DNA of 61,249 nucleotides, the filler included, from Globobulimina sp. (taxonomy: Eukaryota): assembly GCA_003354225.1 (NCBI GenBank). It is 21 parts of 21 records of this genome, joined end to end, with 100 filler letters (N's around TTAATTAATTAA, not from the genome) between each part and the next. Parts side by side here need not be neighbours in the genome. Positions count along the whole stretch, not along the records: positions 20,462 to 23,283 come from PIVH01004740.1; 20 more parts are not named here. One strand, given 5' to 3'. The notes below the pieces were generated by a model. The model made no database searches. It was given only the letters and a program-made list of their open reading frames with translations, and was not told the DNA's origin. Below, piece after piece: positions 2,924 through 42,998 of the stretch. Every line of letters begins with the position of its first letter. The stretch's first letter is position 1. The position numbers and the translations under genes are program-made.

Positions 2924-4120
2924 TTCGCGAACAATGCAATCTCTCCATTCATTATCTACTTGATATTTATCAGATTTTTCATCCTCAAATCGCTCCACAA
3001 ATATATCACTCGTATCGCAAACACCTAAAGTTATCCCCATTGTCACGTATTCACTGTGACCAATACACATTGCTGGCATCCCAACGCACTGCACACCGGT
3101 CCACTGTAGGTTTTCTTCTTTGTTGTCATCACATTCAACAGTTAGATGGCAATAAAACAATGGATTTGGAGCATTTAAGGTCAAATGCGGATCATTGCAT
3201 AAAATTGGCTTGCCAGTATCTGTATATTTACCGCCAACTACAAATGCATTGGAAGCTGCTCCTTTTAAATCCATGACATTAATGGTGGTGTCACTGCTGT
3301 GGTTCATATCTTGTTCAACTTTTTCATCCTGTTCCATATCACCATTGTTTGTTGAAACATATTTTTGTTTGCTTTTAAAGTACGAATGTTTGATGCCCAT
3401 AATTGGCTGATTCTGTCGCTCCAATAGTTTGCCAATGTCCTTTAGTTTCATATAGAAATCAGCAGCGTTGTTTTGTGTGTCGTTGTATGGACATTGGTAT
3501 ACTTTCTCTGTATCAAAGCAAAACCATTCGGCATTGCGATAGCCAACAATTTGTATTAATAATGTTGAGAGCATTTTGGAATCCCAACCAGCGCTCATTT
3601 TGATGCCTAATAATCTGCCAACGCTCATTACATCGCTTTCAGTCCAATACTGCGGGTTATAATTTAATAATATTGTGCTTAATTCAACAGGTTTTGCAAA
3701 AGTTTCATGGGTTAGCCACGCATTAATACCTTCCACATAACACGATATCATATCAATTGCTGACTGGTATTTATTTTTCTTTCCGATAATAAATTCCCAA
3801 TCATTAATTCCTAACTGTTTAAAGTTGCATGTTCGCGAAAATACATCAATAGCTTTTCCTGGCAGACCGACTACGGAGGATAATTTACCATGAATTGCTA
3901 AATGTGTTTGAACTAATTGAAATAATCGATGTTGAGCGGTTACAAAGCCTTGTAATCTATAGCCATCTTTTCTGGTCGATGCATAAATATGCGGCACACC
4001 CCAGCGGTCGTAACATATTGTTGCTTGTTTATCTAATATCGGCAATGATATTGTACCATCCAATGGAGGTAAACGCGTCTCACTACTTTTCTCAATGCCA
4101 TACGAAACGGCAGCACCCAT
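2924..4120 (-). CDS. Penicillin amidase / acyl-homoserine-lactone acylase family Ntn-hydrolase (3' partial)
   Basis: N-terminal 'YDRWGVPHIYA...GFVTAQHRLFQL' and beta-chain start 'SNAFVVGGKYTDTGKPILCNDPHL' (nucleophile Ser codon 3251-3253). Begins MGAAVS. Confidence 0.92.
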
Positions 4121-4230
4121 GGTTTGAAGCGCGTATTAATTATTATATAACTCAAAAACAAAAAATAACCAACTTTCATCTTTTTTTCATCGAGATGTGG
4201 TATCGTGATACATTTCAAAAATAAATCAAT

Positions 4231-20361: not shown

Positions 20362-20461
20362 NNNNNNNNNNNNNNNNNNNNNNNNNNNNNNNNNNNNNNN
20401 NNNNNTTAATTAATTAANNNNNNNNNNNNNNNNNNNNNNNNNNNNNNNNNNNNNNNNNNNN

Positions 20462-20580
20462 ATATTTTCTTTTATGATTATGATATTCTCTCTTTAGAAA
20501 CAATGTAAAATTGTATTTTTTCTGAGTCATTAGTTTAATGCATTTCATTTTATTTTGTCCTCTCCAATAATGTTCAACTT
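20462..20580. repeat. 119-nt perfect inverted repeat, left copy (partner 23165-23283)
   Basis: The first 119 nt of the contig are the exact reverse complement of its last 119 nt. Confidence 0.95.
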
Positions 20581-21654
20581 TTAACATATTTACTTTTGAT
20601 TTTCCATTTGAGTGCAAAATGTCATTAAATTTAGGTAAATTTGGGTGCAACAAACCAGTCAGAGGATCCGATTGACAGATGGGCAATACGTGTTTTATAA
20701 CATGCCATGGATCAATAAAAGTTCCTTCCAATCGTAAACAATGCCAAAAATATAGGACACGACGTGTAACATCATCTTTCATCAAACTGCGCATTTTTTC
20801 TGATAATAATCTGCTCAAAAGGTTGCACATCATATCGTAACCCAAAACCACTACAATTGACAAAAAATACAGTAACGTGATTGGTGAATGTATGAATGCA
20901 TTGCAAATTCTGATAATAACTTCAGTTTGTGACTCAGTATGTATAACCTCTGATAAATCTGCAATAAACCCTGTTAAAATCATAAGACCAAAAATCCCAC
21001 CGCTTTTCTTGTATGTTTTATCTTTTATTGTGTTTGCACCGGATCTGCATCCTCCGACTCGATCAATCTCTTTTTCATCATGTTCTTCTATTGCTAAAAT
21101 ATCAAACAATGACGCAGATTCATTCTGATTATTTATACCATTTGAATTGATTTGATCTCTTACTTGGTTGAAATATTGTTGTGTTTCGGCTGAAAATGTA
21201 TTTGCAATATGTTCAATGAGTTTTTGTTTTTTATCAGTTCCATTTTTATATTTTTGTAGTTTCTGACGACGGTCAATATAATCATTAAACTTACTGATTT
21301 CAGATTTGTTTCTGTTACAAACCTAACGCTACATCCTGTACAAGATGTTATAGTTTTTTGCGAATAGTTTCCAGAGATCATTGACTGTGAACATTGATAA
21401 TATTCTCTCTGTGTATGATGCAGAGCACCTAAATGAGGATGTTTTGTTGGCGGGTTCCATTTTCCATAAATTGTTGTATGTGTTTTGCATAGTAAACGAA
21501 CTTGTTTTTCGTCTACATCTCCATACACCACCATACAACCAGGATGTGGTTTTCCGTGTTTAATTGGAACTGCTTGAAGGATTTGCGGAGATACTTTGTT
21601 AATTGACTGTGCAAATTTGTCACACAATATGTCAAAAAATGCATCAGATGACAT

Positions 21655-21700
21655 CTCAACATTTTGTTCTTTGAAAACTCAACATTTTGTTCTTTGAAAA
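21655..21700. repeat. 23-bp perfect tandem duplication causing a frameshift
   Basis: CTCAACATTTTGTTCTTTGAAAA occurs twice. Removing one copy fuses ...GIFFKEQNVE to MSSDAFFD... in frame. Confidence 0.92.
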
Positions 21701-21840
21701 AAATTCCGTGATTTTCGTCACATTCAAAATATTTCTTGTGATACAAAGAACCATTATTATATCCAATTGGATACTTTAATTCTACACCAACCCAAATACC
21801 ATCAGCAAAATCAACTGTTCCGTGGTATTTAATAGTTCCA
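21680..21840 (-). other. CAP-Gly domain inside the transposase ORF
   Basis: 'GTIKYHGTVDFADGIWVGVELKYPIGYNNGSLYHKKYFECDENHGIFFK' is the CAP-Gly consensus, with GKNDG appearing as GYNNG. Confidence 0.92.
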
Positions 21841-23164
21841 ATATCATTGATGTTAATTTTTTGTGATTTTTTTGAAAATAAACATGTCGAAATTACTTTT
21901 CTTTGTCGATATTCTTCGATATCTGCATTCTTTAACACCACATGAGCTCCTTGTTGCAGTTTATGCCCATAAATTGTTTTTAGAATGAAATAAGTATAAT
22001 AACCATTCAACAATGTATCAGATTGTAAGTCTGGACGTTGTGTTATTTTACGCCCTAGAGATTGTTGTAATGATAGTAATCTCTGTTCAGTGTCATGTAT
22101 CTTTCTGCTGAATTGACGACAGTATCTGTTTGCAATGTGTTCAAATGGCACTCCCTGTTCGTTAACATCAAAACCAACAACATTCAAAAATAATTCAGGG
22201 TCAAAAAAATTTGTTGCTGTGTCTTGGTAGAATTGTTTTTTATGAGGGTCCAATAAAATTATATCTCCATTACCACACACTATCCTGCCATAATAATATA
22301 CTGATTTACATTCGTTGCATTTTTTACTGAGGTTAATTGAAGGTATGGGTCCTACACTGCCTTTGTGCATCATATAACAAGGAGTTAATTGAAGTTATCA
22401 TATAACACGGCAACACTGCCTTTGTGCATCCCATCAGCGACGCTACGATAACGATTTTTCAACTCGCTCTCAATCCCCATACGGTTGCATACAATACACG
22501 TAGTGCTGTCGACGTATTCAAATATCTTTTCAACTTGATTTGTTTCTAAATTTAAAGAGGATAACAGGATTGACTTAGAATCACAAATAAGCATCACTTT
22601 TTGCATCAAATCAGCATTTTCCATCATATTAAAATAAACATTCGTTACGTTTTGGTTTCTTTTAATATTTTTTAAATCCAATTGAAATGTTTGATCACAT
22701 AACTGTGCAGGCAATTTGTTTCTTATTTGCTCAACAAGACGATTCAAATTGTTTGTTATTGCAGGAGGTGCTTTGGTAGCACTCCCTTTAACTCGTAAAT
22801 ACTGCAAATAAGCTGCTAATAACTCACATAGCTTGATTTGTTTTAGCATGATTTGTGGTGACACAACAAATAAATAACAAGAAATTTTAAATAAAAAACT
22901 ATTGCATAATAACACTAAAAATAACTTTTATTTGCTAAATTTAACTTTCTTCAACGGTGGCTATCCTTAGCATAATAACACCAACAACCCCCAACACCAT
23001 TCCACCGAGACCAACACCCCTCATCCAACAGCGGAGCGTTTACTATAATCTAACATGCAGAAATTACAAATTGATCAAGTTCACATGATCAACCTTTTTG
23101 CGATTTTTTCCAATGAGATATAACAACCTAATGTTTGATGAAATAAAATTGGAGAGGACAAAAT

Positions 23165-23283
23165 AAGTTGAACATTATTGGAGAGGACAAAATAAAATGA
23201 AATGCATTAAACTAATGACTCAGAAAAAATACAATTTTACATTGTTTCTAAAGAGAGAATATCATAATCATAAAAGAAAATAT
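23165..23283. repeat. 119-nt perfect inverted repeat, right copy
   Basis: AAGTTGAACATTATTGGAGAGG...AAAAGAAAATAT is the reverse complement of 20462-20580. Confidence 0.95.
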
Positions 23284-24466: not shown

Positions 24467-24709
24467 TTGTGGATATTTTTCTAAAAATTACGATCGAGAA
24501 TGATGATGATATAAATAACATAAAATTATGTATAATAAATTCATAATCGAATATTTATAGCTGTTAAATTGTTATATAATCACTCAATGATTTTGTTATC
24601 ACTTCATCTTGAGGTTGCATCTTTCTTTTCACCGCTTTCAACAACCTTCGCATTATCTGAACAAGAGTGAGTTGTAGTTTTAAAGCTAAAGTTTTGGGAA
24701 CGAGTGACC

Positions 24710-25963
24710 ATGTCAGGCTCAACTGGTACATTTAAATGGAAAATCAAGGCTAAACTATTAACCAATGTTGATGAATGGGAAAGTGAAACATTTACAATAT
24801 CAAATTTGCAATTTACACTGGATGTGTATCCAAATAATGATGATGAAGCAAAGAACTCGTTCCAATGGTACGTGACATTAAAACCATGGCCATCTGGAAC
24901 AGAATCGATTGTATTATGTGTATCTCAATTTTGTAAAGAAACAATGCTGAGCCATACAGCCATTGTCACATACACTGAAAATGATAATAGCCACGGATTG
25001 CCTGACAATGCATTATTACCGTCAGAATTAAACAAAAATATGAAATCTTTAACCATTGGCGCACGCATTAATATATTATCAATAAAATATAAACAATCAT
25101 CATTATATTTCAATAAAATATCAAATAATGTCAATATTAATAATATAAATTATAAAAAACAGCGTACAATTTCATGGAATATCAATAATAAATTATTAAC
25201 ACAATGGAAATGTGCTCATATTGGAAAACCGTTTGAAAGTAAAATATTTGATAATCAGTGGTTGATTACATGTTATCCTAATGGTGAGGATGAAGATTAT
25301 GAGGGATATTTGAGTGTATTCCTTCAATTATGTGCATTACCAACAACCATAAAACAAATCAAAGTAAACTACAAAATAAAACTACAAACAAATGATGAGT
25401 ACAAAAAAATGTATACAATACTCGACGATTTGGATGATTCTGCAGATTTTAGTTATAATACTAGTAATTCCAGTTGGGGCACTGGGAAATTTATGAAATC
25501 TTCAAAAATGAACACTTATAAATCATTGAAATTGATAGCAACTATTGATATCATAGAAGAAGAAAGGAACGTTAATCAAATTAATCAACAAACAGATATT
25601 TTGAATGCAAAAATTGTCTCATTGACAAAAGATATATCACATTTACAAAGGGTTCATCACCGTGATACTAATAAACTGAGAAAGCAAAATAAATCACAGA
25701 TAGATTTATTACAAATAATACAATTACAAAATGATAATATTCGTAATATTGATCATGATGAACTGAGAAAAAACATTAAATCTGAAATAGAGTTTTTAAA
25801 AAATGACAATAAGAAATTAAAACAGAACATTAAAACATTAATGACGCAACAAAATGATCATATTCATAATATCGATGAACTGAGAAAAAGCAATAAATCT
25901 GAAATACAGTTAATAAAAAATGATTTTGTTACATTATCCAATTTATTTAATCAACAATGCTGA
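24710..25963 (+). CDS. Tandem MATH/TRAF-domain protein with coiled-coil tail
   Basis: Two MATH units: 'FKWKI...ESETF...LDVYPN' and 'ISWNI...FESKIF...WLITCYPNG...GYLSVFLQL...SWGTGKF'. The tail has repeated 'DELRK..KSEI' heptads. Confidence 0.85.
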   Translation: MSGSTGTFKWKIKAKLLTNVDEWESETFTISNLQFTLDVYPNNDDEAKNSFQWYVTLKPWPSGTESIVLCVSQFCKETMLSHTAIVTYTENDNSHGLPDNALLPSELNKNMKSLTIGARINILSIKYKQSSLYFNKISNNVNINNINYKKQRTISWNINNKLLTQWKCAHIGKPFESKIFDNQWLITCYPNGEDEDYEGYLSVFLQLCALPTTIKQIKVNYKIKLQTNDEYKKMYTILDDLDDSADFSYNTSNSSWGTGKFMKSSKMNTYKSLKLIATIDIIEEERNVNQINQQTDILNAKIVSLTKDISHLQRVHHRDTNKLRKQNKSQIDLLQIIQLQNDNIRNIDHDELRKNIKSEIEFLKNDNKKLKQNIKTLMTQQNDHIHNIDELRKSNKSEIQLIKNDFVTLSNLFNQQC

Positions 25964-40911: not shown

Positions 40912-42998
40912 ACAAGTTCAAAGTGGCGGTGACTGGCAAAAAAATCAATGTCCACCACATCGAGAACCTATTCCAGATCCATTCCACCGCCGAATCCTTC
41001 ATGTTATACGCCGCGACGCTCAAAGACATGCAAGAATGGATCGGCGTTGTCACCAAAACCTGCCATGACTACGTATCGCTGGCCACCACCGTCAAAAACG
41101 AGGAGCTCTCCGCCACCAAAAATGTGTACGCCGCGACACTGCAAATTCCAAACGACTTTGCCGAGAAATGCATGAATGGGACTGGCTGCGCTACAAAGTT
41201 CTCGTTTGTGAGCCGCAAACATCATTGCAAGTATTGCGGATTTGTAGTCTGCAGCAAGTGTTCGAGCAATCAGTTGCAATCTCGGCCCACCGCGGCCGAC
41301 GCCGGCACCACAATGGTGAGAGTGTGCGATGTCTGCTATGCAAAGCATGCCGGCGTGAAAAAGGACGCCAGTTCGCCGGCATTGGCGCATCAGCCCACCC
41401 CCAAAGCATTGGATATTTTGGGCTATGCCCGGCCGCCAACCGCCAGTCGGAGGAAAACGCTGAAAACGTTTGGCAGAGTGCGCGAAAACGAGTTGTTGAA
41501 AATGTATGAGAAACGAGCGAAAAAAGCAGAGGCTGAGGAGAAAAAAGAGGCAGTTCGAAGCAGTGGCGGACGGAATGTGCCACCTCCACCGCCGAAAAAA
41601 AAGCAGGCCGCGGCCGCTGTGTTGGATTTTGTGAAACTTGACATCGAGCCCAAGTTAATTGCATTGGAGACCGATAAGAAGAAATTGGAAGAAAAAGCGG
41701 CTGGTTTGCAAGCGGAGAATGACAGTTTGAAAAGCGAGCGATATGCAGAGAAACAGGCAACGGACAAAATGGCGAAGCAGAATGACGAATTGGTGCACGA
41801 TAACGAGAGATTGCAGTCGTTGTTGGATAAATTGTCGTCGACCACCGACCAGAAGAAGAAAGCGGAGCAAATTCAAAATGCGAAAATCAAAACATTGCAG
41901 TCGCACAACGACAATTTACAAACTGAGCTGAAGCTGAAAGAAGAAGAGATTGCGCGGCTTTTGCATTATAAGCAGAATTACGACCGATTGGAAAGCAAAT
42001 TGCGAGAAAAGGACGAGCAGTTTGGAGAATTATTGAGCAAATTCGGCAAATTGCACGAAATCAACAAGGAGATCGATGAGATGACCCAGTTAGCGGACGT
42101 CAGTAAGTCGGCTTCGTCGTCGCCCAGCAAAGCAGCAGCTGTCCCTCCAACAGTGGCGAGCATGGCGAGCCTCACAGTGAGCCATGCTGAGAGTGAAAAA
42201 AAACTTGAAGTGGATGCTAGTCAGTCACAGTCACAGTCACAGCGAGTGTGCCAAACCTGCAATAAAAAGATAGTTGGCCGCGCATTGCGCACAAAGGGCG
42301 GCTTACACCACAGAGCCTGCCATGTGTGCAAGGACTGCAATGTGTCGTTAGCGGGCAAGAAATATGGCATCACGCAGGCAAACGGCAAGAAAATCAAATT
42401 GTGCGAGCAATGTACAAATAAAATCAACGAAACGCGTCTGCTGCAGACACGGCAGAGACATAAAAGCAAATCGTCGTTGATGGACCAAATGAACCAATTT
42501 CGAAGTTCGGCCACCAGAGTACCCAAGCCATGGGAGACGAATTTAAATAAAAAATCTGTCAACAATACGCTAAAACCCTCGATAGCGGCGTCTATGGCGG
42601 CAAACCATAAAGGAAATAGCAATGAGAATGTGCCCAAAGCGAGGATGAAAAAATCCAGGTCAGTGAGCAAAATGGACACAGCTTTTTTAGGCGGTTACGG
42701 CGCGAAAAAAAGCAGTCGCAAATCTGCCTCGTTGATGACGCAAAAGAAATGTAGCAAATGCAAAGTGGCCATCTTTGGCAAGAATAAAGTGGAGGGAGCA
42801 AATGGCGCCGTGTTTCATCCGAATTGTTTTCGCTGTTTTGACTGTGATAACGAACTGCCAGCAAAGAATTGGAGGTCGTATCCGTCGCAAAGCAAAAAAG
42901 GAGGCAATAATATATTGACATTGTGCCCAAATTGTGTGCAAAAAAGAGATGAAGCACTCTTTTCGCAGTACAGAGGCAAACTTAAACTTAATATCTAA
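40912..42998 (+). CDS. PH-FYVE-coiled-coil-LIM-LIM protein (5' partial)
   Basis: PH end 'SFMLYAATLKDMQEWI', FYVE 'RKHHCKYCG.VVCSKCS...RVCDVC', coiled coil, and two LIM domains (CQTC...HRACHVCKDC; CSKC...FHPNCFRCFDC). Confidence 0.88.

Follow-up and report, generated by a model that had tools for sequence, protein, structure and literature searches.

A CAP-Gly domain in the linker of a divergent KDZ transposase gene of Globobulimina sp., a probable fusion read from one contig

The KDZ superfamily of transposases and its CxC clusters were reportedly first described by Iyer et al. in 2014. The name stands for Kyakuja, Dileera, and Zisupton. Zisupton has terminal inverted repeats (TIRs) and an 8-bp target-site duplication (TSD), and Kyakuja has CA..TG ends, a 7-bp TSD, and no TIRs (PMC12730594). 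CAP-Gly domains bind the C-terminal EE[Y/F] tails of alpha-tubulin and tip-tracking proteins in a groove flanked by a GKNDG loop, whose third residue (Asn3) hydrogen-bonds the tail (PMC3806363). Here we describe a locus that appears to combine the two. It lies in a stretch of 61,249 nucleotides (nt) of Globobulimina sp. (GenBank assembly GCA_003354225.1), called the window below, and is carried on the minus strand of the contig at positions 20462-23283 (PIVH01004740.1).

Our reading of this locus is that a divergent KDZ gene carries a CAP-Gly domain in a linker, that the fusion is real DNA, and that the added domain may have a tethering role; we give this joint reading a probability of about 0.6. 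The gene order would be an N-terminal helical region, a CxC5-type Cys cluster, a linker that now contains the CAP-Gly domain, and an RNase-H-like core (D, D, E plus D..H...H....C). The preliminary description of the locus had taken four minus-strand open reading frame (ORF) pieces as one protein. These frames exist, lying head to tail in three frames (22385-22927, 21513-22394, 21160-21678, and 20414-21322; pieces A to D), and all four are collinear with a 914-position hidden Markov model (HMM) built from 21 long relatives (741-1,156 amino acids, aa), to which the profile positions below refer. As an alternative assembly we used the Logan contigs (k=31 assembler) of DNA run X1, which contains 92% of the contig's sampled words. 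The parts of the gene, in coding order, are as follows.

22847-22849, minus strand: likely start codon ATG, Met 27 of piece A, at the onset of homology with the relatives
22388-22849, minus strand: piece A, N-terminal region; residues 29-178 correspond to profile positions 16-161, and CIVCN at 22484-22498 is the first CxxC pair of the CxC5-like cluster
22355-22391, minus strand: apparent A/B lesion of 37 nt, replaced by 2 nt in the alternative assembly, where A and B form one frame
21855-22354, minus strand: piece B 5' of the CAP-Gly domain, with KKCNEC at 22308-22325 and YYYG at 22287-22298 (second half of the CxC5-like cluster) and a helical region; from residue 13 it corresponds to profile positions 162 to ~327
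21678-21854, minus strand: CAP-Gly domain (Pfam match 21681-21848), with the tail-binding loop GYNNG at 21750-21764
21655-21700, minus strand: exact 23-nt tandem duplication in two units, repeating the last CAP-Gly strand and causing the B/C frameshift
21298-21654, minus strand: piece C, start of the catalytic core; residues 4-129 correspond to profile positions 328-468, with the first Asp in GDVDE at 21508-21522 and a Cys cluster, YYQC at 21391-21402 and SCTGC at 21331-21345
21297-21298, minus strand: apparent C/D lesion, where the alternative assembly has 10 extra nt and one substitution and the frame is restored
20462-21297, minus strand: piece D, catalytic core; residues 6-285 correspond to profile positions 525-807, with GGCRSG at 21038-21055 and HTESQTEV at 20918-20941, open to the contig end without a stop
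Within piece D, minus strand: second Asp in GYDMMC at 20825-20842, IDPWH at 20702-20716, HVLPIC at 20675-20692, and the Glu in VEHYW at 20564-20578

The core motifs named earlier (GYD, IDPWH, and VEHYW) occupy invariant family columns, and the 22-sequence family alignment shows no variation at residues D163, D204, H207, H211, C216, N245, and E250 of piece D. The first catalytic Asp lies in GDVDE, which aligns with the family strand "GDGne..k.r.C." This is the segment that had been called a CxC6-like cluster; the label does not hold, and Pfam scans found CxC6 in none of the 118 family representatives introduced below. The gene had also been extended to 22915, and the ATG given above is the more likely start. 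At the other end, the ORF of piece D runs off the contig and the relatives extend about 130 residues further; the C-terminal ~130 residues would be missing because the contig ends. A ciliate-type stop reassignment and an internal eliminated sequence with a pointer were considered for the interrupted frame and dropped. The pieces differ by frame and not by stops, and other contigs have long standard-code ORFs.

The CAP-Gly domain reported inside the ORF is well supported. PF01302 matches piece B with an E value of 1.4e-19 (70.2 bits against a cut-off of 26.5, model positions 10-65 of 65), and the segment matches 33 solved CAP-Gly sequences at E <= 1e-3, the best at 7.6e-13 and dynactin p150 at 3.5e-12. 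With a score of 70 bits, the domain is therefore not decayed. It is modeled as an insert between profile positions ~327 and 328, and the gene resumes at the collinear profile position directly after it. The insertion site is spanned by 22 of 117 relatives, all distant, with 18-144 residues between match states 300 and 345; in 11 relatives inspected, the linker at this site is Ser-, Asn-, and Lys-rich low-complexity sequence. The domain sits in a linker that tolerates insertions and is probably disordered, with the N-terminal CxC5 module on one side and the core on the other; a complete CAP-Gly domain would have entered this linker with the frame kept at the domain's 5' side. A 1,077-nt X1 contig extends from the KDZ N-terminal region into the CAP-Gly domain, of which it contains the first 37 codons with GYNNG, and its sole difference from the window is the 37 nt at A/B. 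GC content at third codon positions is 0.22 in the CAP-Gly domain and 0.22-0.25 in the flanking gene parts, and 0.39-0.58 in four of five other ORFs of the window (small samples). We consider it likely that the fusion is real DNA and not a mis-join. If the CAP-Gly segment were instead an assembly or amplification-chimera artefact joined into a repeat-derived contig, which we regard as improbable, two joins ~180 nt apart would be needed, leading back to the same gene, strand, and collinear position and enclosing one complete domain whose 5' side is in frame. The k=31 assembler also produced the 5' join, and composition is uniform across the joins.

The assignment to KDZ is made through relatives and a profile-profile comparison, not through direct Pfam matches. 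Piece D has five homologs with 48-50% identity, all of them fragments from environmental assemblies. A profile of piece D and these five homologs was searched against 1.84 billion representatives and matched 118 at E <= 1e-3, including 85 at <= 1e-10 and 36 at <= 1e-30; one of the 118, P0085, is an unrelated bacterial repeat protein. In Pfam scans of these representatives (28 long ones at E <= 0.01, the other 90 at E <= 0.001), KDZ was found in 12 (four of the long ones and eight of the others), and seven of these matches are above the gathering score (P0103, P0106, P0112, P0114, P0117, P0119, and P0120). CxC5 was found in 8 of the 28 long relatives, above the gathering score in P0052 and P0112, and CxC4 in one relative, below it. 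Chromo was found in one relative (P0120, 37.4 bits against a cut-off of 25.1). Comparison by hhalign of 22 close family members with the seven Pfam-passing KDZ proteins gave a match at 99.4% (E 7.7e-22) over 187 columns, which span the GGC...TES strand region, the second Asp in GYD, the D..H...H....C motif, and the N...E..W helix. The CxC5-like region of the window is collinear with the CxC5 of the relatives, and an Atlas lead at 0.75 pointed to CxC5/CxC4 clusters. Since the A/B lesion divides this cluster in two, the region has no direct Pfam match.

The fold was tested on P0010, the closest relative with a complete core, and not on the window's own protein. The AlphaFold2 (AF2) model of P0010 has a predicted local distance difference test (pLDDT) of 88.9 and a predicted template modeling score (pTM) of 0.89. 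In VIA-align, the top 28 of 50 rows for this model are all DDE transposases or integrases, with Z of 6.3-7.8 and 130-201 residues aligned; they include TnsB, IstA, Tn5, Mos1, P element, Hermes, and Mu, as well as the ASV, HIV, and PFV integrases. For this predicted structure, the consistent list of DDE transposases and integrases, rather than the Z values, carries the argument. The family profile had a single, irrelevant match among PDB sequences (E 1.3). An RNase-H-like DDE fold is thus predicted for a relative, and we conclude that the gene is a member of the KDZ superfamily, as first suggested, in a divergent clade that Pfam does not recognize directly.

Three of 30 looked-up relatives could be named, and all three come from EukProt Foraminifera: P0010 and P0052 from Bolivina argentea and P0064 from Nonionella stella. 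We take these EukProt sets to be transcriptome-based. A word index yielded no longer relatives among 1,145 candidates. The closest relatives (P0001-P0005 and P0006-P0018, 40-50% identity) are all ORFs of 217-517 aa with a start shortly ahead of the GGCRSG strand region, on contigs of <= 8.8 kb. They may be copies of the core only, or frameshifts or introns may separate them from their upstream parts.

Of the three small lesions described in the gene, the one at B/C may stand, and those at A/B and C/D are assembly differences that are in frame in X1 contigs. At A/B, the 1,077-nt contig carries 2 nt for the 37 nt at 22355-22391, and the repaired junction lies exactly at the step from profile position 161 to 162. 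At C/D, a 445-nt X1 contig has 10 extra nt after 21297 and one substitution. A tiny intron (32-nt GT..AG) was tried for C/D and rejected; the 10 extra nt restore the frame, and the result matches the family profile. At B/C, 21655-21677 is identical to 21678-21700, and deletion of one unit of this duplication restores the frame. A 29-nt GT..AG stretch would likewise mend the B/C frame. A further X1 contig joins 21243 to 22926, skipping 1,682 nt (21244-22925), the greater part of the gene's N-terminal two thirds, CAP-Gly domain included. This may represent an internally deleted copy, and the shorter side, only 24 nt at 90% likeness, is too weak for such a claim.

As assembled, the copy is broken by the 23-nt duplication just after the CAP-Gly domain. 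The fusion could thus be real and still a dead end, if a decaying, non-autonomous, or pseudogenized copy caught the CAP-Gly segment once and the domain has no role in transposition. The exact duplication agrees with this explanation, as do the lack of CAP-Gly in any relative and the change of GKNDG to GYNNG. An 86-nt X1 contig begins 3 nt into the second unit, which weakly suggests that the reads contain the duplication. However, the rest of the ORF is open with all catalytic residues kept, the alternative assembly lacks two of the three apparent frameshifts, and the domain is well preserved at 70 bits. We hold a dead end to be rather unlikely.

Several observations weigh against a real KDZ gene with an inserted CAP-Gly domain. 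The fusion is known so far from a single, imperfectly assembled copy. None of the X1 contigs seen bridges the duplication at the 3' junction of the CAP-Gly domain, and these contigs are another assembly rather than independent data because they probably come from the same sample. In the Pfam comparison on the window pieces, CAP_GLY matched, but KDZ, CxC5, and CxC6 gave no direct match at E <= 1; nor did KDZ match piece D or its five close homologs at E <= 10, a search in which HMMER filters may hide weak matches. The VIA-align Z values are middling by the tool's own scale, and Foldseek found nothing for the P0010 model in PDB at E <= 1e-3. The Pfam scans found CAP-Gly in none of the 118 family representatives, few of which span the insertion site (22 of 117). 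Searches with the junction region (piece B residues 60-245) against a set of 5.8 billion proteins gave no match among 149 candidates, and in JGI metagenome contigs none of 191 pattern matches to piece B and none of 91 to the core profile was confirmed. In the tail-binding loop, Gly1, Asn3, and Gly5 of the canonical GKNDG are kept, but Lys2 and Asp4 are replaced. Contig quality adds to these points, through a perfect 119-nt terminal inverted repeat that none of the other 20 contigs of the window has, a 29-nt near-tandem repeat at the inner edge of its upstream arm (23148-23201), and a word depth in run X1 that varies from 5 to 30 along the contig, where depth does not give copy number. Absence of CAP-Gly from the 118 representatives would also fit a lineage-specific acquisition. 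Within the window, none of 160 tblastn matches lies outside contig 20462-23283, and no other copy was found there.

The contig and its repeats are listed here.

20462-23283, no strand: whole unplaced contig of 2,822 nt, flanked by N44-TTAATTAATTAA-N44 linkers
20462-20580, no strand: inverted-repeat arm 1, 119 nt, perfect, within coding sequence toward the 3' end of the gene
23165-23283, no strand: inverted-repeat arm 2, 119 nt, upstream of the gene, identical to positions 1-119 of a 658-nt X1 contig

The 658-nt contig has a higher word depth and runs on past arm 2. Arm 2 is the start of this longer contig, and therefore the 3' part of the gene is also present, inverted, upstream of the gene. 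A 67-nt stretch (22992-23058) recurs later in the same repeat contig ("goes back 292"). The region 5' of the gene is a patchwork of repeats. The inverted repeat was considered as a transposon TIR and rejected: it is coding (the arm starts with the VEHYW codons), the ORFs of relatives run past it, and it continues in the 658-nt contig. Such features are what an artefactual origin of the CAP-Gly segment would draw on. The contig is short and unplaced with a perfect repeat at its ends, has scrambled local duplications at three places and uneven depth, and differs from the alternative assembly at two sites; two other runs of the same sample contain almost none of its words. Runs X2 and X3 gave no coverage of the contig, and no RNA run was listed as containing it, neither of which counts as evidence.

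TIRs and TSDs of a transposon are not visible because the contig end cuts the ORF. This lack of visible ends would also agree with a domesticated, KDZ-derived host gene in which CAP-Gly was acquired for a microtubule-related role in the cell, and the family appears to be expressed, to judge from the EukProt Foraminifera sets and their presumed transcriptome basis. We consider domestication very improbable. Unitig breaks, 5 of 13 aligned pieces less than 99% alike, and the weak joint that skips 1,682 nt suggest several diverged or deleted copies, and many paralogous family clusters occur in environmental assemblies.

The window as a whole is a series of 21 contigs of 2,819-2,823 nt in order of size, with the same 100-nt linker at each of the 20 joints. 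These contigs are unlinked, and therefore adjacent sequence is uninformative on the context of 20462-23283; gene-neighborhood inferences across the linker joints are invalid. A penicillin-amidase ORF at 2924-4135 on the minus strand (PF01804, E 1.1e-61, contig GC 38.7%) lies amid otherwise eukaryote-type contigs and could be bacterial contamination or a transferred gene. Long intron-free ORFs on the plus strand encode FYVE and LIM (40914-42995), DOCK N-terminal and C2 (33529-34968), and MATH (24671-25960) domains, in keeping with a protist of amoeboid or rhizarian type. Further contigs carry protein kinase and Alg9-like mannosyltransferase ORFs, which are long and in standard code. An Rfam scan of the window gave no match.

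If the fusion is real, an intact copy might use the CAP-Gly domain as an accessory tether, which would hold the transposase on acidic-aromatic tails (alpha-tubulin, EB-type) and hence on microtubules, or on another partner with such a tail; this is the role we would favor if the domain has one, and a functionless single capture in a decaying copy is the main alternative. Tail binding by a domain with a GYNNG loop may be possible because Asn3 is kept, and may be weakened or retargeted because Lys2 and Asp4 are replaced. The tethering role is a tentative proposal, drawn from sequence, and we would sooner doubt than accept it. In a giant cell of the foraminiferal kind, the transposase might use CAP-Gly to ride or dock on microtubules and so reach nuclei or spindles over long distances, an extension that we think unlikely. 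If true, it would be the first cytoskeleton-tethered cut-and-paste transposase. The value of the finding is limited by the single copy and its doubtful contig, and by the tentative nature of any function.

No paper pairing a KDZ name with CAP-Gly was found in the library searched, supplements aside. Papers with both "transposase" and "CAP-Gly domain" were all unrelated, judged by title; "CAP-Gly" with "transposon" gave nothing relevant among the matches listed; and the KDZ papers among the matches listed do not mention Foraminifera. On this basis, a KDZ transposase with CAP-Gly would be an unprecedented case of an accessory domain.

Compared with described KDZ proteins (PF18758; CxC clusters PF18717 and PF18718), the window gene has the same order of core motifs, the invariant D, D, and E with D..H...H....C, a CxC5-like region collinear with the CxC5-type cluster of its relatives, the profile-profile match at 99.4%, and a relative with a predicted RNase-H-like fold. 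It differs in being too divergent for a direct Pfam match and in carrying CAP-Gly, and the TSD rule is not applicable to it since the ends lie beyond the contig. The foraminiferal proteins P0010, P0052, and P0064 belong to the same clade and are collinear with it in architecture but lack CAP-Gly. P0010 has 39% identity to piece C and 37% to piece D and starts after the insertion site; P0052 passes Pfam CxC5. P0052 and P0064 have 42 residues in the stretch around the insertion site. The relatives define a large, Pfam-invisible KDZ clade of 118 representatives, whose named members are all foraminiferal.

The CAP-Gly domains of dynactin p150Glued, CLIP-170/CLIPR, KIF13B, and tubulin cofactor B match the window's domain over its whole length (E 7.6e-13 to 1e-6) and share the conserved Asn3. 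GKNDG is almost invariant in CAP-Gly domains (PMC3806363), whereas the window has GYNNG. Its first strand is poorly matched (Pfam from model position 10), and its host protein is a transposase, not a cytoskeletal protein. A parallel for an added domain is P0120, a KDZ fragment of 290 aa (46.8 bits) with a chromodomain (37.4 bits), which indicates that the superfamily accretes targeting domains. In P0120 the chromatin-reading chromodomain stands at the C terminus, whereas the window gene has a cytoskeletal kind of domain at an internal site. Modules that read chromatin or DNA are common additions to transposases; a cytoskeletal tail-binding domain would be an accessory of another sort. Its presence would suggest that the cellular location at which a transposase acts is controlled, not the genomic one.

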